Source: Eubacteriales bacterium
Lineage (GTDB): Bacteria > Bacillota > Clostridia > Oscillospirales > JAAYXM01
Direction: 5' to 3'
DNA length: 64,000 nucleotides
NCBI GenBank assembly: GCA_045586595.1
Contig: JAZNAQ010000026.1
Span: 48,200-112,199 of the forward strand
The notes beneath the pieces are model-generated. The model was given only the letters and a program-made list of their open reading frames with translations, ran no database searches and was not told the DNA's origin. Both the position numbers and the translations under genes were made by a program. Positions 4,471 to 17,079 of this stretch are shown in pieces. Position 1 is the stretch's first letter; each line of letters opens with the position of its first letter.

Positions 4471-4912
4471 GGGAAATACCTCCGACGCGCATTGAAATTC
4501 GCTTTCTCATCGTCACGGTTGTTCCTCTTCCTGTTTTTGAACGTATTTTAAGAGTGTCGGTAAAGCTTTCCATTATAGTAAATCCCATGCCTGAGCGGTC
4601 ATCTCCGCCGGTTGTAAACATTGGCGTTTTTGCCTTTTCAACATCAGGAATACCAAGTCCGCGGTCGCGGACAACAATTTCAAGAGTGTTGCCGTCAAAA
4701 ATCCGTAGTCTTATGTAAATCTTTCCGACACAATCCGGATATGCGTGCACTATACAGTTTGTAACCGCTTCGCTAACGGCTGTTTTAATATCGCCGATTT
4801 CTTCAAGGGTTGGGTCAAGCTGTGCCGCAAAAGCGGAGACTGCAGCTCTGGCATAACCTTCATTTGCAGAACGGCTGGGAAAGGTGATTGACACTTCATT
4901 TGTAATATTCAT
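4454..4912 (-). CDS. spoIIAB: Anti-sigma F factor kinase
   Basis: NEGYAR, DIKTAVSEAVTNCIVHAY, RSGMGFTIMESF. Confidence 0.96.
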   Translation of the reverse strand: MNITNEVSITFPSRSANEGYARAAVSAFAAQLDPTLEEIGDIKTAVSEAVTNCIVHAYPDCVGKIYIRLRIFDGNTLEIVVRDRGLGIPDVEKAKTPMFTTGGDDRSGMGFTIMESFTDTLKIRSKTGRGTTVTMRKRISMRVGGISRDRNC

Positions 4913-10568: not shown

Positions 10569-11939
10569 ATGAACAGGGAAGTAAATCAATACGAAAAAAT
10601 GACCACTTGGCCTATACCTAAGCTTGTAATTACACTGGGTATTCCTACAACTATCAGTATGCTGGTAACTAATATCTATAATATGGCGGACACTTATTTT
10701 GTAAGTGAGCTTGGCAACAGCGCCAGCGGTGCAGTCGGTGTTGTGTTTGGTTTGATGGCAATCATTCAAGCTTTTGGGTTTATGTTTGGCCACGGAGCGG
10801 GAAGTATAATTGCACGAAAATTGGGGCAGAAAGATTCTCATAGTGCAAGTGTTTTTGCTTCTTTAAGTATTATGGCGTGTCTTTGCGTAGGTGCTCTGAT
10901 TGGCGTTTTAGGCCTTATATTTATAGAACCTCTTATGCGGATACTTGGCAGTACTGCAACTATTCTTCCATATGCGAAGGGATATGGAATATATATTCTT
11001 ATTGCGGCTCCCTTTACTATGACAAGTTTTGCGTTAAATAACATTTTAAGGTATGAGGGCAAAGCGTTTTTTTCTATGATAGGTCTTACCATTGGCGGGA
11101 TTTTAAATATAATATGCGACCCGATACTGATATTTGGTTTTGATATGGGTATAGCGGGCGCAGGTCTGTCTACAGCTATCTCGCAGGTGATAGGATTTTT
11201 GATTTTGCTTTCTATGTTTTTGAGGGGGAAAACACTTAGCAAGCTTAGCGTTAAATTTATAAAAGAAAATCCTAAAGGGATATTTGAGATTATGGCAACG
11301 GGATTTCCTAGCCTGTGCCGTCAGGGGTTAAGCAGTATTGCTACGATGACCCTGAACAATCTGGCAGGCGGAGTTGGCGGAGATGCCGCCGTTGCGGCGA
11401 TGTCTATTGTAAATAGGATTACGTTCTTTATCTTTGCTGTAGGTCTTGGCATTGGGCAAGGGTTTCAGCCCGTGGCGTCATTTAACTACGGGGCAAAGAT
11501 ATATTCGAGGGTGAAAAAAGCGTTTTATTTTACCCTCGGAGCGGGAGAAGTGCTGTTGTGTGTATTAGTTGTGGTTGGTCTGGTGTTTTCAAATCACTTA
11601 ATAGGGATCTTCCGTAATGATCCGACGGTTATTGATATAGGGACGCTTAGTTTGAAGTTACAGCTTTTAGCACTTTTCTTTCACCCGTTGACAATCTGTT
11701 CAAATATGCTTTTCCAGAGTATAGGAGAAAATAAGAAGGCAACCTTTTTATCAATGCTCAGAAGCGGAATATTGTTTATACCTATTTTGTTGATACTAAC
11801 GAGATTTTTTGGCCTTTTCGGAGTTCAGTCAGCTCAGGCAATAGCGGATGTGCTTGCATTTTTTGTTTCTGCACCGCTTGTATTGAGCTTTTTAAAAAAG
11901 CTTCCGGACGACCAACCTGACGTTAAGCCTGTTGGGTAA
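10569..11939 (+). CDS. MATE family efflux transporter
   Basis: IYNMADTYFV, NIICDPILIF, GIAGAGLST, GFQPVASFNYGA; about 12 TMs. Confidence 0.95.
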   Translation: MNREVNQYEKMTTWPIPKLVITLGIPTTISMLVTNIYNMADTYFVSELGNSASGAVGVVFGLMAIIQAFGFMFGHGAGSIIARKLGQKDSHSASVFASLSIMACLCVGALIGVLGLIFIEPLMRILGSTATILPYAKGYGIYILIAAPFTMTSFALNNILRYEGKAFFSMIGLTIGGILNIICDPILIFGFDMGIAGAGLSTAISQVIGFLILLSMFLRGKTLSKLSVKFIKENPKGIFEIMATGFPSLCRQGLSSIATMTLNNLAGGVGGDAAVAAMSIVNRITFFIFAVGLGIGQGFQPVASFNYGAKIYSRVKKAFYFTLGAGEVLLCVLVVVGLVFSNHLIGIFRNDPTVIDIGTLSLKLQLLALFFHPLTICSNMLFQSIGENKKATFLSMLRSGILFIPILLILTRFFGLFGVQSAQAIADVLAFFVSAPLVLSFLKKLPDDQPDVKPVG

Positions 11940-11984
11940 GGCGTTGTGTGTTTCAAGAGAGTAAGGTTTGAATTACATATACTT

Positions 11985-12042
11985 AATTTTTGTTCCTACC
12001 TTAACACGAGGCTATAAAGGATGTCGGATGTTGTCGAAAGGA
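11985..12042 (+). repeat. Cassette-junction repeat, type A (copy 1)
   Basis: TTTTTGTTCCTACCTTAACACGAG..ATAAAG..TGTCGAAAGGA; aligns over ~55 bp with 13781-13838. Confidence 0.8.
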
Positions 12043-12049
12043 ATGCGAA

Positions 12050-12388
12050 ATGAAAAAAGTTATTATTGGAATTTTAATTGCGTCATTAGTTGATATAAGT
12101 TTTGGTGTGCCGTATTGGGTTGACGATTTTGCATGTGCAAAATATCATAATAAAATTGAAGCTGTTGTTTCAAGTGTTGATGGTGTCAAGGTAATAGATA
12201 TGTTGAGTGGGTGTGGAAATCCGGCTAATGGAAATCATACCAGTAAGATCGTCGTTGCTTTGGTTGAAACAGAAATGACAGTTGCAGATTTAACAGATGA
12301 ATTTTCAAATGCATATAGAATAATGCCTTTTGATGAATTATTGAATGAAACTGAAACATTTGATAGATTTTATGTTAAATACATCTGA
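12050..12388 (+). pseudogene. C-terminally truncated paralog of 16244-16657 (secreted/membrane hypothetical)
   Basis: Aligns with 16244-16657 up to ...ETFDRF, then ends after YVKYI; paralog continues about 30 aa. Confidence 0.65.
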
Positions 12389-12496
12389 ATACGACAAGTA
12401 CTATGAAATTGTAGGGGTGTCGTATAGATAAAAAGGTTGCGTCTAAACCCTATATCCCTTACAATACATGTTTATTATAAACAAAGGTGGATTTAT

Positions 12497-13003
12497 ATGG
12501 CGCACATACTGGGAGTATTGGCGGTTGCGACCTTTCTTTTAAGCTTTCAGTTTAAAAAGAGAAGAAACATTATTGCTGTCAATTTAACCTCAAGGCTGTT
12601 ATACATATTACAATACATTTTTCTTGGAGCATTTGAGGGTGCTGTTTTAGATTTTATGGGGCTTTTGTTGTCCTTTTTCGCAGGATACAAAGAAAAAGAG
12701 TTTGTGATAAAGCATTTTAAGGCTATTATGGTGGTTATCAGCCTGCTCTTTTTGGCGGTAGGACTTGCCTTGTATGAAAACATATTCAGTATATTCGCTA
12801 TTTTGGGGATTGTTTTTGAAATCGTTGCTTTGTGGCTGACAAAAGAAAAAAACATAAGAATTCTTTCTATGGTTGCAGCCCCATTTTGGCTTGTTTATAA
12901 TCTGGCAAACTCGGCATACGGCTCTGTAGTCGGGAATGTTCTGGTAATGGTTTCAATCGCAATTGCTATGGTAAGACTTGATTTTAATAAAAAAGCAATT
13001 TAA
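12497..13003 (+). CDS. YgjV-like inner membrane protein
   Basis: LSFQFKKR, QYIFLGAFEGA, IRILSMVAAPFWLVYN; multi-TM; ATG after AAGGTGG. Confidence 0.75.
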   Translation: MAHILGVLAVATFLLSFQFKKRRNIIAVNLTSRLLYILQYIFLGAFEGAVLDFMGLLLSFFAGYKEKEFVIKHFKAIMVVISLLFLAVGLALYENIFSIFAILGIVFEIVALWLTKEKNIRILSMVAAPFWLVYNLANSAYGSVVGNVLVMVSIAIAMVRLDFNKKAI

Positions 13004-13023
13004 CTGTAAAAAGGAATATAGAT

Positions 13024-13782
13024 ATGGATATCATACAGACTTTTTATGACAATTTGGCTTCACAATATGATAAACTTTTTCTTGATTGGCAAGCCACATT
13101 AAAAGAACAAGCCTTGATTTTAGATAAACTGTTTAAAGATAACGGATATGATAATAAGTCTAAAATTCTTGATTGTGCCTGTGGCATTGGAACACAATCA
13201 ATAGGGCTTGCTGCTCTGGGGTATAATTTAACAGCTTCTGACATAAGCGATTGTGAACTTGAAGAAGCAAGAAAACGAGCTATAAAAAACGATGTAAAGA
13301 TTTGTTTTAAAAACGCTGACTTTCGTACATTATCTAAAACCTTTTCGCGGGAGTTCGACATTGTTATTGCTATGGATAATGCTTTGCCGCATATGCTATC
13401 AAAGAGTGATTTGGAAACGGCTATCAAGAGCATCACAGGTCGGGTAGCGTCAGGCGGTATGTTTGTTGCCAGCATTAGAGATTATGATGATTTGCTTAAT
13501 AGCAAGCCACCATATTCTGCACCGTATATACATAAGACAGAAAAGGGGCAGAGAGTGTCCTTTCAGACATGGAACTGGGACGGTGACTGTTACAAGCTTA
13601 TCCAGTATATTATCGAAGATGATAAAACTCTAAAAACAAATAAATTTGAATGTGAATACAGGGCGGTTCGTAGAGAAGAAATTACAAATCTACTTCTCTC
13701 TAATGGTTGCAGTAATGTGGTATGGAAATTTACTAAAGAAACGGGCTTTTATCAACCAATTGTAATTGCCAAAAAACAATAA
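13024..13782 (+). CDS. Class I SAM-dependent methyltransferase
   Basis: ILDCACGIGTQ motif I, ASDIS, FDIVIAMDNALPH. Confidence 0.9.
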   Translation: MDIIQTFYDNLASQYDKLFLDWQATLKEQALILDKLFKDNGYDNKSKILDCACGIGTQSIGLAALGYNLTASDISDCELEEARKRAIKNDVKICFKNADFRTLSKTFSREFDIVIAMDNALPHMLSKSDLETAIKSITGRVASGGMFVASIRDYDDLLNSKPPYSAPYIHKTEKGQRVSFQTWNWDGDCYKLIQYIIEDDKTLKTNKFECEYRAVRREEITNLLLSNGCSNVVWKFTKETGFYQPIVIAKKQ

Positions 13783-13838
13783 TTTTTTGTTTCTAACTTG
13801 ACACGAGCGATAAAGATATAGAATAATGTCGAAAGGAG
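13781..13838 (+). repeat. Cassette-junction repeat, type A (copy 2)
   Basis: TTTTTTGTTTCTAACTTGACACGAG..ATAAAG..TGTCGAAAGGAG directly after the methyltransferase stop. Confidence 0.8.
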
Positions 13839-13845
13839 TAGTTAG

Positions 13846-14559
13846 ATGAAAAAGAAAATTATAGTAACTACATTAGTAATTATATTTCTTGTAGCATTAT
13901 GTGTTGTAGTTGCATTGTGGTTTAATCCGAATTTAAATAAATTCAAATTAAAAAGTGTAGAGAATAATGCGTTGGAATATATACATCAAACATATCCTGA
14001 ATTTACAGTCGATGATATTTCTGTTAGACACGAGTGGGGATCAATTTATTGTGATGGTGGTCATTATGTTGTTGATTATAATGACGAGAAAAGCGAAAGT
14101 CGAACGATAATATTTGACCATGCAGGTGCGGAAATTTTATCAGATAAATATATTGACTATGAGGCTTGGAAGATTATATATGATTATGAAGATAGTATAA
14201 AGGCACAAGTAACGGATGCTTTGAAAAATAAGTTGTCAATAGATGCGCATTATGTCATTATAGATGATATAAATGTATATGGTAAAGAACGGGAAATTGT
14301 TTTGGATGGATTGGATATATCAAGGGATTCTGTAAATTGCAGTATAGGTATTATCGGTGAAGATAATAGTTTATCCTTGGAGTTTGCGAAACTATCAAAA
14401 GAAATTTTTTGTACAGTATTTTCTTTAAAATTACCTATAGAGAATATAGAAATTTATCAACATAACTCGCCTGACAGCAGATTCGATATAACTTGCCCTG
14501 TGGATATGGGTACAATGAGCATAGAAGAAATTGAGAAACTTGTCAATTTTTGTTTCTAA
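13846..14559 (+). CDS. Hypothetical membrane-anchored/secreted protein
   Basis: N-terminal MKKKII plus hydrophobic helix; RBS AAAGGAG; its stop codon lies inside the next junction motif. Confidence 0.75.
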   Translation: MKKKIIVTTLVIIFLVALCVVVALWFNPNLNKFKLKSVENNALEYIHQTYPEFTVDDISVRHEWGSIYCDGGHYVVDYNDEKSESRTIIFDHAGAEILSDKYIDYEAWKIIYDYEDSIKAQVTDALKNKLSIDAHYVIIDDINVYGKEREIVLDGLDISRDSVNCSIGIIGEDNSLSLEFAKLSKEIFCTVFSLKLPIENIEIYQHNSPDSRFDITCPVDMGTMSIEEIEKLVNFCF

Positions 14560-14610
14560 CATGATTTGAACTTGACACCAAAAATATTTGCATCTAAAAC
14601 TTATGTGTCG
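14545..14610 (+). repeat. Cassette-junction repeat (copy 3, composite)
   Basis: TTTTTGTTTCTAAC-ATGATTTG-AACTTGACAC..ATTTGCATCTA..GTGTCG; shares parts of types A and B. Confidence 0.7.
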
Positions 14611-14660
14611 TAATGTATATCGTATCGAATTTGTCTAAAAAAGAAGTTAAAATGCGGAAG

Positions 14661-14694
14661 GGAATATCTTTATGGATATCATACAGACTTTTTA
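14661..14694 (+). pseudogene. Duplicated 5' fragment of the methyltransferase gene
   Basis: 14671-14694 is identical to 13023-13046 (TATGGATATCATACAGACTTTTTA); both preceded by GGAATAT. Confidence 0.75.
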
Positions 14695-14725
14695 ACACGA
14701 AAGATGTTCGATGATCTCGAAAAAA

Positions 14726-14855
14726 CAAAGCCTTCCCCTTGAGGAGAAGGTTGTGTGCGAAGCAACTCGGATGAGGTGGAAAAGATAACGATTGCTTTGC
14801 AATCTACACCTCACCACCGCCTACGGCGGAGCCTCTCCTCAAGGAGAAGCCTTTG
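14726..14855. repeat. REP/MITE-like palindromic element (130 bp)
   Basis: 22-bp terminal inverted repeats at 20/22 (CAAAGCCTTCCCCTTGAGGAGA / TCTCCTCAAGGAGAAGCCTTTG); inner TGAGGTG/CACCTCA pair; GC-rich in AT-rich context. Confidence 0.8.
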
Positions 14856-14869
14856 AAAGGAGCACGATT

Positions 14870-14950
14870 ATGGATTTTGTAACTTGGTTTGTAATTGCTA
14901 TTGCAATAATCGTTCCAGTAGCAACATATATTTTTCACAATAAGGAATGA
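14870..14950 (+). CDS. Small 26-aa single-TM peptide (not in ORF track)
   Basis: MDFVTWFVIAIAIIVPVATYIFHNKE*, RBS GAAAGGAG upstream, junction motif right after the stop. Confidence 0.55.
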   Translation: MDFVTWFVIAIAIIVPVATYIFHNKE

Positions 14951-15020
14951 TATTTGCTCTTACCTTGATATGAAGATGTTTTCAAAATAATTGGCATCTA
15001 GATTATACAGTCTTTATAAA
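14951..15020 (+). repeat. Cassette-junction repeat, type B (copy 4)
   Basis: TTTGCTCTTACCTTGATATGAA..ATTGGCATCTAGATTATACAGTCTTTATAAA; last 31 bp are 30/31 identical to 16697-16727. Confidence 0.8.
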
Positions 15021-15071
15021 GTTTGATATACAAGGGATAAAATCGAATAAAACATAAAAAGAAAAAGGAGA

Positions 15072-16172
15072 ATGAAAATGTCAGCAAAAACAAAAATAAT
15101 AACTTTAATTGCGGTCTTGATATTATGTCTTGGAATGATTGTATATGGTACAATATCTGAAGGAAACTCAATAATGGATATAATGCCGAGATTGATTTTA
15201 ATGGGACTGACAGCAGTAGTAGTCATAATAAGAATTGCATCAAATTCTCCTAAAAAACAATCTATTGATATAGAATCATTGAAAAAGGATATTGTTACAG
15301 CTAAAGAATGGATAAAAACAGCTCTTGAATCATCAAGCTACCAGGCAGATTTCTCAATTGAAAGTTTAAAAGATATTGACCGTTTCTTTGACGAGCAAAA
15401 CAAAGATGATGGTATTTTATCGCAAAATACAGGTAGAATACTTTTTGCTTTAGGTGTATATGTTGGGGAAACTATAATTTCAAACTATGGTGGTCAGTGG
15501 GATTTGAGCGGTTGTAAGAGTGAAACAAGTATTAGTGTAAGAGTTGATGAAAACACAGTTTTGTTCCCGGTTATCAGAGTTATGGCAAGATATGAGTATG
15601 GCACTGTAAATAGCATTTATGCTTACGGTTGTAGTATCAAGAAAGAAGAAAAGAGAAACTCAACAGATGTTGAAATTGATACATCAATAGTTGAAACTAA
15701 AAACATTGATGATATATGGAGAATAGAGGAAAAAGAAAACTTTATAGTTGCATTGAGTCAATACATAGCAGAAAAGTGTGAGTACGGAGATAATATTGAA
15801 ACTCTGAATGAAGAACAGAGAGTTTTCTATATTACACAGGCTTTAGAAATGGAAGTTAACAATGGCGGTTTCGCGCAGTTTTTCTTTAATTCTAATGGTA
15901 TGTTTGCCAATGAACTTATTGCGTCTTTTGAAAAAATCGGTGCAATGAAAACAGCAGAAATTTGCAAAAAGGCGATTAGTATATACGGAGATGAAGTTCC
16001 AACTGACAGAGATGAAAGAGAAGATGGTTTAACCCCTGATGATGAAAAAGAGGAAGAAAGAATAGAAGAATTGCTTAACGAATGTGACGATGCGTTCTTT
16101 GAATACGAAGATGATTTAGTCGAATTAAATTATCAATTTATCATCAACAATAAGGAGTCATTTATGAACTAA
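15072..16172 (+). CDS. Two-TM protein with C-terminal DUF4375/DMP19-like domain
   Basis: C-terminal EMEVNNGGFAQFFFNS..FEKIGA motif typical of DUF4375; central ADFSIESLKDID..LGVYVGETI..GGQW domain; start may be 15078. Confidence 0.7.
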   Translation: MKMSAKTKIITLIAVLILCLGMIVYGTISEGNSIMDIMPRLILMGLTAVVVIIRIASNSPKKQSIDIESLKKDIVTAKEWIKTALESSSYQADFSIESLKDIDRFFDEQNKDDGILSQNTGRILFALGVYVGETIISNYGGQWDLSGCKSETSISVRVDENTVLFPVIRVMARYEYGTVNSIYAYGCSIKKEEKRNSTDVEIDTSIVETKNIDDIWRIEEKENFIVALSQYIAEKCEYGDNIETLNEEQRVFYITQALEMEVNNGGFAQFFFNSNGMFANELIASFEKIGAMKTAEICKKAISIYGDEVPTDRDEREDGLTPDDEKEEERIEELLNECDDAFFEYEDDLVELNYQFIINNKESFMN

Positions 16173-16233
16173 TATTTTTTTGTCCCTAACTTGACAAAAT
16201 CATAGTAAGATTGTCGAAAAAAGTCGAAAGGAG
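16173..16233 (+). repeat. Cassette-junction repeat, type A (copy 5)
   Basis: TTTTTTGTCCCTAACTTGACA..TTGTCGAAAAAAGTCGAAAGGAG after the DUF4375 gene stop. Confidence 0.75.
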
Positions 16234-16243
16234 AGGCGAGCAT

Positions 16244-16657
16244 ATGAAGAAAATTATTATTGGAATTTTAATTGCATTATTGGCTTTCGTAAGTGTTTGT
16301 GTACCATATTGGGTTGATGATTTAGCATGTGCAAAATATCATACAAAAATAGAAAACGTTGTTTCGAGTGTTGATGAACTTAAAGTAATAGATATGTTAA
16401 GTGGATGCGGAAATCCGGCTAATGGTGATCATACCAGTAAAATTGTGGTTGTTTTAATAGAAACCCAAATGACACTTGATGAGCTGAAGAGTAAATTTCC
16501 AGATTCATTTAGAATAATGCCTTTTGATGAATTATTGAATGAAACTGAAACATTTGATAGATTTTCTAAACACGTTACAGAAAACAGTGATGATAATTAC
16601 GTGATTGTGTATTCGGAGAGTGCACCTTTTTACTACCTGGATTTAAGAGGTCATTAA
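16244..16657 (+). CDS. Hypothetical secreted/membrane protein (full-length paralog of 12050)
   Basis: N-terminal hydrophobic helix, GCGNPANGDHT motif; ATG after AAAGGAGAGG. Confidence 0.75.
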   Translation: MKKIIIGILIALLAFVSVCVPYWVDDLACAKYHTKIENVVSSVDELKVIDMLSGCGNPANGDHTSKIVVVLIETQMTLDELKSKFPDSFRIMPFDELLNETETFDRFSKHVTENSDDNYVIVYSESAPFYYLDLRGH

Positions 16658-16727
16658 TCTTTAGTCCCAACTGGATATGAAATATTATCCCAAAAGATTG
16701 GCATCTAGAATATACAGTCTTTATAAA
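16658..16727 (+). repeat. Cassette-junction repeat, type B (copy 6; right end of array)
   Basis: TTAGTCCCAACTGGATATGAA..ATTGGCATCTAGAATATACAGTCTTTATAAA. Confidence 0.8.
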
Positions 16728-16785
16728 ATAAACTAAATTTACTACATGGCCTTATATTAAAAATTAAAAGAAAAGGAAGATTATA

Positions 16786-17079
16786 ATGACAGGTAAACAA
16801 AGAGCATATTTAAGAGCATTGGCAAACGGTATTGATGCAAAATACCAGATAGGGAAAGACGGAATTGATGACGAAACAATTAAAATGGTTGATTTGGCAC
16901 TTGAGGCAAATGAGCTGATTAAAATTAAAGTTCTTGAAAACGCTTTTCTCGACATACGCGAGGCTTGTGAAGAAGTATGCGAAGCGACAGGCGCATACCC
17001 TGTGCAGTGTATCGGGAACAAATTTGTTCTTTATCGTGAATCAGAAAAGAACAAGACTATAAACATCCCGAAGAAGTAA
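16786..17079 (+). CDS. yhbY: YhbY/CRM RNA-binding protein
   Basis: MTGKQRAYLR, QIGKDGI, ELIKIKVL, VQCIGNKFVLYR. Confidence 0.93.
   Translation: MTGKQRAYLRALANGIDAKYQIGKDGIDDETIKMVDLALEANELIKIKVLENAFLDIREACEEVCEATGAYPVQCIGNKFVLYRESEKNKTINIPKK

Follow-up and report, generated by a model that had tools for sequence, protein, structure and literature searches.

Promoter-like intergenic modules with putative Spo0A operators at the borders of exchanged gene blocks in gut Clostridia

Phage morons are single accessory genes equipped with expression signals of their own, and the pdif modules of Acinetobacter are bounded by short recombination sites and have no dedicated integrase. Integron-type gene capture is, to our knowledge, thought to be nearly absent from Firmicutes. 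The passages of the IntegronFinder study on which we draw (Cury et al., 10.1101/030866) report no complete integron in the Firmicutes genomes surveyed and state that integron cassettes 'rarely contain promoters'. Here we analyse a stretch of 64,000 nucleotides (hereafter the window) from a Clostridia genome (Eubacteriales bacterium, GenBank assembly GCA_045586595.1, contig JAZNAQ010000026.1), in which seven open reading frames (ORFs) with recurrent junctions lie between a MATE efflux gene (10569..11939) and yhbY (16786..17079). A first-pass annotation, made from the letters alone, had taken this interval for an integron-like array of gene cassettes belonging to a non-canonical system. That interpretation is partly supported. 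The interval is indeed an islet exchanged horizontally and the junction motif does mark the borders of its units, but the core of the motif is not the breakpoint: the exchanged blocks end about 20-60 nt downstream of it, at a -10-like TATA.

Our central finding is that genes of this kind are co-inherited with their own leader (L) and with a promoter-like module (P) downstream, as L-gene(s)-P blocks, which recur between species and between families, in contexts unrelated to each other, with 88-99% identity. As judged by sequence comparison, the junction motif is the 5′ part, which we call HEAD, of a conserved set of intergenic modules in gut Oscillospiraceae. Arrays in which single-gene units have junctions in common are present in uncultured Clostridia of gut and rumen, and the units cross species and family lines.

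Junction modules and their spread

The source genome (G000; genomes, contigs and loci are given below by G, C and L numbers) comprises 1.59 Mb in 53 contigs and is 95.8% complete; the array lies on contig C26, of 114 kb. As the first-pass annotation had stated, all seven ORFs between MATE and yhbY are on the + strand and AT-rich, the interval having 33.4% G+C vs 45% for the genome. The six motif cores that it had listed were also found in place. Four of them (11992, 13789, 14552 and 16182) form one 26-nt repeat family with 73-88% identity. The string TTTNGTYYCTAMCTTRAYA, with up to two mismatches, has four matches in the window, every one of them in the interval and on the + strand; 0.07 matches are expected in shuffled sequence, and four were reached in none of 100 shuffles. 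The two type B cores (14956 and 16664) are more degenerate and lie inside a 71-nt pair whose members are 76% alike. We group them with the HEAD family because a canonical HEAD and a B core are contiguous in relatives. Taken in order, the first two cores lie 53 nt (MATE) and 7 nt behind the preceding stop codon, the third overlaps it, and the others lie 6 nt, 10 nt and 7 nt behind it, which agrees with the claim that five of the six cores, MATE being the exception, overlap the stop codon or lie within 10 nt of it. In the overlapping case, the TAA that ends the ORF for P237 is the TAA of CTAAC in the core at 14552. Equally correct were the statements that the type A tail supplies the ribosome-binding site (RBS), in which it terminates, and that the 20-nt junction between the YgjV and methyltransferase genes lacks the motif. 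The first-pass annotation had not found the core by eye in housekeeping intergenic regions. In the window all matches are in the interval; elsewhere in G000 such modules are rare, with two single HEADs before ordinary genes, one of DUF896 (C46; directly behind a tRNA terminator) and one of choloylglycine hydrolase (C9).

A unit-profile scan of 23 loci from relatives yielded a simple grammar, in which P (HEAD with or without a B or C core, up to a -10-like TATA) is followed by L, the leader with the RBS. HEAD consists of a T-run and GTCCCTAACTTGACA, and is preceded by a stop codon, a terminator-like hairpin or another module. Its direct continuation is AAATCATA in type a and CGAGC in type b; in other copies, some 20 variable bases lead from it to a B core (CAAAAAGATTGGCATCTAGATTATACAGTCTTTATA) or a C core (TTGCATCTAAACCTTAT...). 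The B or C core stretch measures 45-60 nt, and all variants of P finish in the -10-like TATA. After it comes a 'tail' or module x (GTTTGATATACAAGGGAC), at times with an inserted element M (described below), and then the RBS. The canonical HEAD is a 7-8-7 palindrome, TTTTGTC-N8-GACAAAA, which the b and B variants do not preserve. Together with the -10-like part (16182-16207, and likewise at each canonical HEAD), it holds TAA, TGA and TAG, in all three frames, within 22 nt, and these three-frame stops would explain why upstream ORFs end at or within HEAD. An extra module, AAAAGYGCCGATAAACCATTAAA, was seen between M and HEAD in L014 (7930-7960), L015 (7820-7890, present three times), L020 and L025; the GCCGATAA in it resembles what we take to be the sigma-D -10 consensus.

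All junction units of the window are read on the + strand. Unit A1 (11981..12049) is made up of HEAD (T-run and GTTCCTACCTTAACA), a -10-like TATAAA, the boxes TGTCGGA-TGT-TGTCGAA (12022-12038) and the RBS. Unit A2 (13778..13845) has HEAD, TTGACA-18-AATAAT, a degenerate box followed by TGTCGAA (13827-13833), and the RBS, and unit A3 (16171..16243) has a canonical HEAD (TTTTGTC-CCTAACTT-GACAAAA), TAGTAA, the boxes TGTCGAA-AAA-AGTCGAA (16212-16228) and the RBS. Unit B1 (14950..15071) runs from a degenerate HEAD through a B core (14993-15018; TTGGCA-18-TATAAA) and module x (15021-15038) to the RBS, and in unit B2 (16657..16785) a degenerate HEAD and a B core (16700-16725) are followed by the yhbY leader. 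Unit H (14541..14628) combines a HEAD variant, a second TTGACA and a C core (14588-14604; TTGCAT-17-TAATGT). Behind it lies a rearrangement scar (14629..14725, + strand), in which the YgjV/methyltransferase junction is present as a second, 66-nt copy fused to a degenerate A tail; the copy (14629-14697 vs 12981-13046) is 79% identical and holds a 7-codon stub of the methyltransferase gene. The YgjV gene has a promoter-like leader of C type (12430..12496, + strand; TTGCGT-17-TACAAT, C core 12437-12453), and it is at this leader that homology with the YgjV loci of relatives begins. The start of the methyltransferase gene resembles a B core.

These modules are widespread among relatives. BLAST of the interval against 41 genomes (G000 included) matched some part of it in 29, and units A, B and M are multi-copy, often clustered, in many gut Oscillospiraceae genomes of the same genus. 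When up to two mismatches are allowed, 8 of the 201 genomes sampled from the order have the HEAD 23-mer, with exact copies in three other families; its reversed-pattern control occurs in none of the 201. A metagenome scan found the 23-mer in five short contigs, and pieces of the interval are present at 99-100% identity in contigs from pig, bovine and goat gut runs; parts of the interval without cover in these contigs were not counted as evidence, and the sequencing runs compared contain at most 0.17 of the interval's words. Several species retain a HEAD or B unit at the DUF896 and choloylglycine-hydrolase genes; the DUF896 gene of G003, as in G000, has a HEAD. Unit A3 is 92% identical over 59 nt to a sequence of G011:C63 that lies upstream of a DUF2971 gene, and so shows what is asked of a mobile promoter, namely at least 80% identity over at least 50 nt with non-homologous genes downstream; several other unit pairs are 85-97% identical, while B1 and B2 of the window reach just 76% over 71 nt. 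Neither the HEAD 23-mer nor the B-core 18-mer has a match among the 2.9 million viral contigs of IMG/VR, and a phage origin of the modules was rejected on this ground. In the literature searched, supplements excluded, we found no published description of them.

P looks like a portable promoter. Its spacing is constant across copies both in type A (TTGTCC-16/17-TATAAA/TAGTAA) and in type B (TTGGCA(T)-17/18-TATAAA), while type C, the YgjV leader included, reads TTGCRT-17-TAYAAT. In a consensus promoter scan, A2 scores 11/12. Most HEADs (36 of 40 sites) are intergenic, and of these 31 have the start of a co-oriented ORF within 330 nt, and 18 a co-oriented stop codon within 30 nt upstream. The first-pass annotation had set single, promoter-like copies of the motif elsewhere in the genome against its own cassette reading; single copies with apparent promoter geometry do stand before ordinary genes, which bears out that objection in part.

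The type A leader, in turn, looks like a Spo0A operator of two boxes. Its tail is a pair of heptads, TGTCGAA-N3-TGTCGAA, which begins 3-5 nt downstream of the -10-like element and is followed by AGGAG at a distance of 1-3 nt. In its strict form the tandem pattern has only two matches in the 1.59-Mb genome, A1 and A3, both of them in the array. In 287 kb of relatives' loci we counted 14 tandem sites; a script placed nine of them behind a HEAD or B core, and inspection of the flanks by eye puts 13 in leader position. Of the 14 sites, 11 have a perfect box 1, and the 3-nt spacer takes 12 forms; a perfect box combined with a varied spacer is the pattern expected of a two-site protein operator rather than of recent copying alone. 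The CtsR operator likewise consists of heptads with similar spacing. CtsR was rejected as the binder, its family not having been found in G000 (95.8% complete). Spo0A, on the other hand, is encoded in G000 and in all five unit-bearing relatives tested. In the parts of the literature on which we rely (PMC3485338, PMC2731898), TGTCGAA is the consensus of the Spo0A box, and paired boxes 3 bp apart are described at a Spo0A-repressed promoter of phage Nf. The tandem boxes share these sequence features of 0A boxes (the consensus, the direct repeat, the 3-bp gap and a genome encoding Spo0A), and Spo0A may bind them.

Element M, at 14723..14860 in the window, is a palindromic, REPIN-like element of 135 nt inserted between the A tail and the RBS; wherever it occurs in leaders, it stands between the second box and the RBS. 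Its 22-nt arms are 91% complementary (fold z -5.7). The layout is CCTTCCCC-TTGA-GGGGAAGG, a variable covarying hairpin and then GGATGAGGTG, that is, an inverted doublet of hairpin units, with compensatory changes in the hairpins between copies. Half-units are scattered over about a dozen further sites in G000 (six in C20, others in C40 and C53), and M is multi-copy in many relatives. No Rfam family matches M, and no RAYT gene was found next to it. The arms of M can also enclose a gene: they flank a DUF559 nuclease gene in G182 (L029 6890-7337), in a metagenome contig (L041), in G012 (L023 4150-4620) and in G003, and the gene of a 173-aa P-loop protein in G003 and another metagenome contig. The coordinates in G003 are L018 8860-9560 and 7161-7790, and L040 590-1215 is a locus of the same kind. 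For the enclosed genes, the left arm provides the Shine-Dalgarno (SD) sequence and the right arm begins right after the stop codon. On the 3′ side of M, the window has a hydrophobic mini-ORF of 26 aa (14870..14950, + strand), and the surrounding stretch, from M to the B core, matches G012 and G023. The mini-ORF itself (…WF.IAIAIIVPVAT.IFHNKE) is conserved in G012 (L023 about 4590-4670). At the equivalent position behind M, a hydrophobic ORF of 49 aa is identical in G007, G017 and a metagenome contig.

Exchange of gene blocks between genomes

The genes found beside the units are small, mixed and of 28-39% GC. Among them are HAD hydrolases, a metallo-beta-lactamase-fold protein, a RelB/YafQ toxin-antitoxin pair, DUF559 and HNH nucleases, Bro-N, DUF3791, a TIR-TPR protein, a nitroreductase, a VanY-family protein and zinc ribbons, and many cargo proteins belong to no known family. 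The same cargo genes occupy differing contexts in different species. The comparison between relatives that the first-pass annotation had proposed bears out exchange: the gene content of the islet differs, and homology ends cluster at one junction point.

Several blocks make this clear. A 371-nt block consisting of module x, M, the RBS, the 49-aa ORF (ORF49) and HEAD is 96% identical between G007 and G017 from the joint to the end of HEAD, whereas the core genes that the same two sequences share (Tex and the rplM/rpsI region) show about 72-76% identity. The piece formed by ORF49 and HEAD has four different flanks right after ...AAAATCATA, in G007, G017, G001 and a metagenome contig. The RelB/YafQ block is 88% identical between G001 and G182, a member of another family. 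It opens immediately past the -10 of the module upstream and closes at the -10 of the B core that follows, and its upstream modules differ in type between the two genomes. From the window itself, the block made up of M, the mini-ORF, HEAD and the B core recurs in G012 (85%) and G023 (87%), with its end at 15018-15022.

The same tendency is seen in a count of homology ends. We took 50 directional high-scoring segment pairs (HSPs) between loci from different genomes, with a minimum length of 200 nt and a minimum identity of 80%; 98 of their ends lie away from the locus edges. Of these ends, 15 lie within 12 nt of the joint between P and L, as against 0.82 for random placement in the same loci (maximum 5 in 1000 trials), although ends tend towards intergenic DNA anyway.

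Not all of the material fits the block picture. Some UDG homologues have a downstream unit and others do not. A goat-gut contig of 772 nt (matching 12864-12998 and 16763-17079) joins the end of the YgjV gene, at 12998, to position 16763, 23 nt upstream of yhbY, the two being separated by 55 unmatched bases. The relative it comes from (about 85-92% identical) is without the methyltransferase-to-P137 block, that is, four cassettes, and neither end of the missing block is at a core, contrary to the expectation that breakpoints would map there. No clean filled/empty pair could be found between relatives and G000 by way of the flanking housekeeping genes, synteny being too broken. The homologous islet of G007 (L016 8296-12270, G007:C61) carries between its units the genes of an 857-aa TIR-TPR protein and a 462-aa RyR-domain protein, which look like defence-type cargo. 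In G003, an IS30-family transposase gene (HTH_38 and rve) sits in an A tail after the first box (L018 7866-8843, G003:C5), and is the only transposase in the 23 loci.

The proteins of the window were assigned to families by Pfam and NCBIfam profile matches; all the genes concerned are on the + strand. The interval is bordered by the MATE gene on the left (PF01554, E 8.8e-48) and by yhbY (CRM domain, PF01985) on the right, and the surroundings of yhbY are not conserved among relatives. The first ORF encodes P112 (12050..12388), which has no Pfam or NCBIfam match and is a truncated paralogue of P137 (81% nt identity over 300 nt, to 16244-16543, in a self-comparison of the window). It is followed by a YgjV-family membrane protein (12497..13003; PF10688), whose gene has 86-89% nt identity with those of three other species in differing contexts, and by a SAM-dependent methyltransferase (13024..13782; PF13649), which starts 20 nt after the YgjV gene without a junction unit. 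P237 (13846..14559), of no known family, has an N-terminal membrane helix, and its stop codon lies within the next HEAD. Beyond the mini-ORF come P366 (15072..16172), with two membrane helices and a C-terminal DMP19 domain (PF14300, E 1.3e-27), and P137 (16244..16657), a small membrane-anchored protein of no known family with relatives in G017 beside the same modules. PADLOC returned a methyltransferase-domain match, two marginal matches to P137 (E about 0.006-0.009) and nothing else. An immunity island resembling rAID was considered and rejected, the single DMP19 domain of P366 being the sole hint of immunity in a mixed cargo. Rfam, run over 11800-17000 with E up to 1, gave just a chance match to osmY (18.8 bits).

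Exchange mechanism and alternative explanations

The explanation we favour, with roughly even confidence, is that portable promoters and Spo0A-operator leaders bound exchangeable single-gene units. P would drive the next gene, and Spo0A~P would bind the box pair where transcription would start, so that the gene is shut off as sporulation begins. A block that has landed would be fed by the resident promoter and would provide a new promoter to the gene behind it. After DNA uptake, the host's own recombination would swap blocks by way of the many dispersed copies of P and L, with no dedicated integrase; Campbell-type or double-crossover recombination in P and L would give rise to P/L-gene-P/L′ arrays, and repeated exchange at one place to arrays that are co-oriented. 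We rate host recombination as the most likely mechanism of exchange because it would explain both the integrase-free arrays and the mosaic joints at several positions.

A number of observations weigh against this explanation. As for the promoter, the consensus scan flags A2 alone among the six units, the -10-like hexamers of type A (TATAAA, TAGTAA) are without the usual final T, HEAD is conserved over ~30 nt, well beyond the hexamers and in excess of what a promoter needs, and behind five of the 36 intergenic HEADs there is no gene in the same orientation (a convergent ORF lies opposite four of them, and the fifth is at a contig end). As for the exchange, the left homology end of the ORF95 cassette is its start codon and not a joint. 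RelB/YafQ in G182 and ORF49 in G017 have unlike P modules on either side and a unique flank, an arrangement not easily produced by homologous recombination within P. Moreover, the loci for the counts of tandem boxes, HEAD orientation and homology ends were chosen for bearing units, and the copies are related and the HSPs counted both ways, which overstates independence.

The array is not an integron. The likeness to attC sites that the first-pass annotation saw is not supported: on either strand, none of the six units folds as single-stranded DNA better than its shuffles (z +0.39 and -1.25 to +1.20), and although YYYAAC is present in HEAD, its partner GTTRRRY is found in A2 alone. Nor is any recombinase linked to the arrays of G000 or five relatives. 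None of the six tyrosine recombinases (PF00589) of G000 is on C26, and the one of its five serine recombinases that is on C26 lies about 50 kb from the array; in G017, G007, G003, G182 and G001, no recombinase of either kind was found within 46 kb of the arrays. G017, 99% complete and with at least five HEADs, has three tyrosine recombinases and one serine recombinase, all far from its arrays. In addition, units occupy many chromosomal sites between housekeeping genes, not one platform, and each junction shows an apparent -35/-10-like geometry, vs the promoterless cassettes expected of integrons. A cassette or PATE of the IS200/IS605 (HUH) type was rejected as well. The Y1 transposase (PF01797) was not found in G017 (99% complete) or G001, and the single Y1 gene of G000 (C27:28539-29039), which follows a tRNA and a terminator at the edge of a contig, has flanking hairpins with no relation to either HEAD or M. 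About 10 nt of the B core agree with what we presume to be the Firmicutes dif consensus. Xer/dif sites were rejected, this presumed consensus having no match in G000 at up to six mismatches.

A site-specific process of another kind is the foremost alternative, though we think it unlikely. Here the junctions would be sites of recombination or insertion, at which L-gene-P enters directly after ...CATA or ...TATA with the help of an enzyme encoded elsewhere, be it a Xer-like tyrosine recombinase or a nuclease/transposase, and the promoter-like features would be secondary. The ends of blocks are sharp, as would be expected: ORF49 has its four flanks straight after ...AAAATCATA, and the RelB/YafQ block ends 0-2 nt from the joints on both sides. 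The left and right P modules of a block may differ in type and its flanks may be unique; exact HEAD 23-mers across families, the 7-8-7 palindrome of the canonical HEAD and the co-orientation of arrays point the same way. Yet no recombinase adjoins any array examined, no core is conserved on the L side of the joint, and the palindrome is not preserved in the b and B variants. The position of mosaic joints varies, some following CTTGA and others TATA, the ORF95 cassette begins at its start codon, the goat-gut deletion ends away from the core, and complete B units are not surrounded by target duplications.

To a related idea we give the same low probability, namely that of an integron-like system built of other parts. 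Its cassette would consist of a Spo0A-operator leader, a gene, a three-frame stop and an outward promoter, and an enzyme acting in trans would place it exactly at the -10 of a promoter that is already resident and belongs to the same family. If this were true, each insertion would be expressed at once, would restore expression behind it and would create the next landing site, and the action in trans would explain co-oriented arrays that have no neighbouring integrase.

Less probable still, in our estimate, is that the units are miniature transposable elements of the Correia, BOX or ERIC kind with outward promoters, the genes between them being ordinary island genes. M is clearly such an element, nested in leaders; HEAD and module x form imperfect inverted repeats (11/17) that bracket the B core or M. 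Homologous genes also exist with and without units, as with UDG, and the asp23 operon has a B unit in G017 and an unrelated promoter in G000. Against these points, no target-site duplication flanks the three complete B units, no matching autonomous element or transposase was found, and the sole insertion sequence, of the IS30 family, interrupts a unit. The genes, moreover, are co-inherited with their flanking modules, and the units strictly share the orientation of the gene downstream, in whose RBS they terminate.

We see little prospect for the view that the array forms a single transcript whose modules are sites of RNA processing, stability or translation control, the paired GUCGAA before each SD being bound by an RNA-binding regulator. 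It would account for the lack of an intrinsic terminator between + strand genes at the junctions, for modules that end exactly in the SD and for boxes 1-3 nt from the RBS. It fits poorly with the lack of a single-strand fold signal (DNA parameters only) and of an Rfam family match, with single units standing behind terminators, where a promoter is needed, and with boxes that exactly fit a DNA operator consensus. Finally, that these are ordinary, vertically inherited promoters of a regulon, alike through selection on regulator sites and with nothing mobile about them, agrees with the HEAD or B units kept by the DUF896 and choloylglycine-hydrolase genes in several species, but is highly improbable and already contradicted by blocks 96-99% identical between species whose core genes show about 72-76% identity and by exact 23-mers in three other families yet in just 8 of 201 genomes, as well as being opposed by the presence of the same gene in different chromosomal contexts and by cargo of 28-37% GC in a 45% genome.

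Comparison with known systems

If portable promoters and Spo0A-operator leaders act as they look, acquired genes would receive ready-made expression that is turned off at sporulation, and insertion would spare the gene behind, each block bringing a promoter with it. The vocabulary of HEAD, B and C cores, x, M and tail can be used to annotate unexplained intergenic repeats in these genomes.

The array resembles integrons and CALIN, as characterised in the cited portions of the literature, in being a co-oriented series of small, AT-skewed and functionally mixed single-gene units, in having a repeated element at or near each stop codon and in the reordering of units between genomes. Unlike them, it has no IntI or other recombinase nearby and no attC-type hairpin, carries what appears to be a promoter-like module at each junction and is one of many such chromosomal sites. 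With rAID-1 of Bacteroidales (Ross et al., 10.1101/471110) it shares an origin in gut bacteria; rAID-1, according to the text we cite, has a conserved XerD-family recombinase at its head and a cargo of immunity genes, whereas here there is no recombinase and the DMP19 domain of P366 is the sole hint of immunity. The units recall phage morons, which are also single accessory genes with expression signals of their own; the HEAD and B motifs, however, were not found in viral contigs. Like pdif modules, they are bounded by short sites and have no dedicated integrase, but a dif-like consensus, such as we presume it to be, has no match in G000. Element M agrees with REPINs in being an inverted hairpin doublet that is multi-copy, intergenic and strongly folding; it differs from the REPIN/RAYT system in that no RAYT gene adjoins it and in that its arms can enclose a DUF559 or other gene.

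The two parts of the junction each have a counterpart of their own. The Spo0A-repressed promoters of abrB and of phages phi29 and Nf (A2c), in the accounts available in PMC2731898 and PMC3485338, have two direct repeats of the TGTCGAA type 3 bp apart, which overlap a sigma-A-type promoter or lie just downstream of it, as do the boxes of the type A leader with regard to its putative promoter. The sites described there are single and gene-specific, whereas the putative operator pair of these Clostridia appears to be portable and to serve many unrelated genes. The putative mobile promoters of Nijveen, Matus-Garcia and van Passel (2012, PMC3575422) are likewise near-identical sequences upstream of unrelated genes, common to different genera or families, and their mode of movement is unknown. 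What sets the present modules apart from these, and from Correia elements, is that they are co-inherited with the upstream gene, that they follow a grammar (HEAD, B or C core, x, M and tail), and that they carry a putative operator pair and bound arrays.

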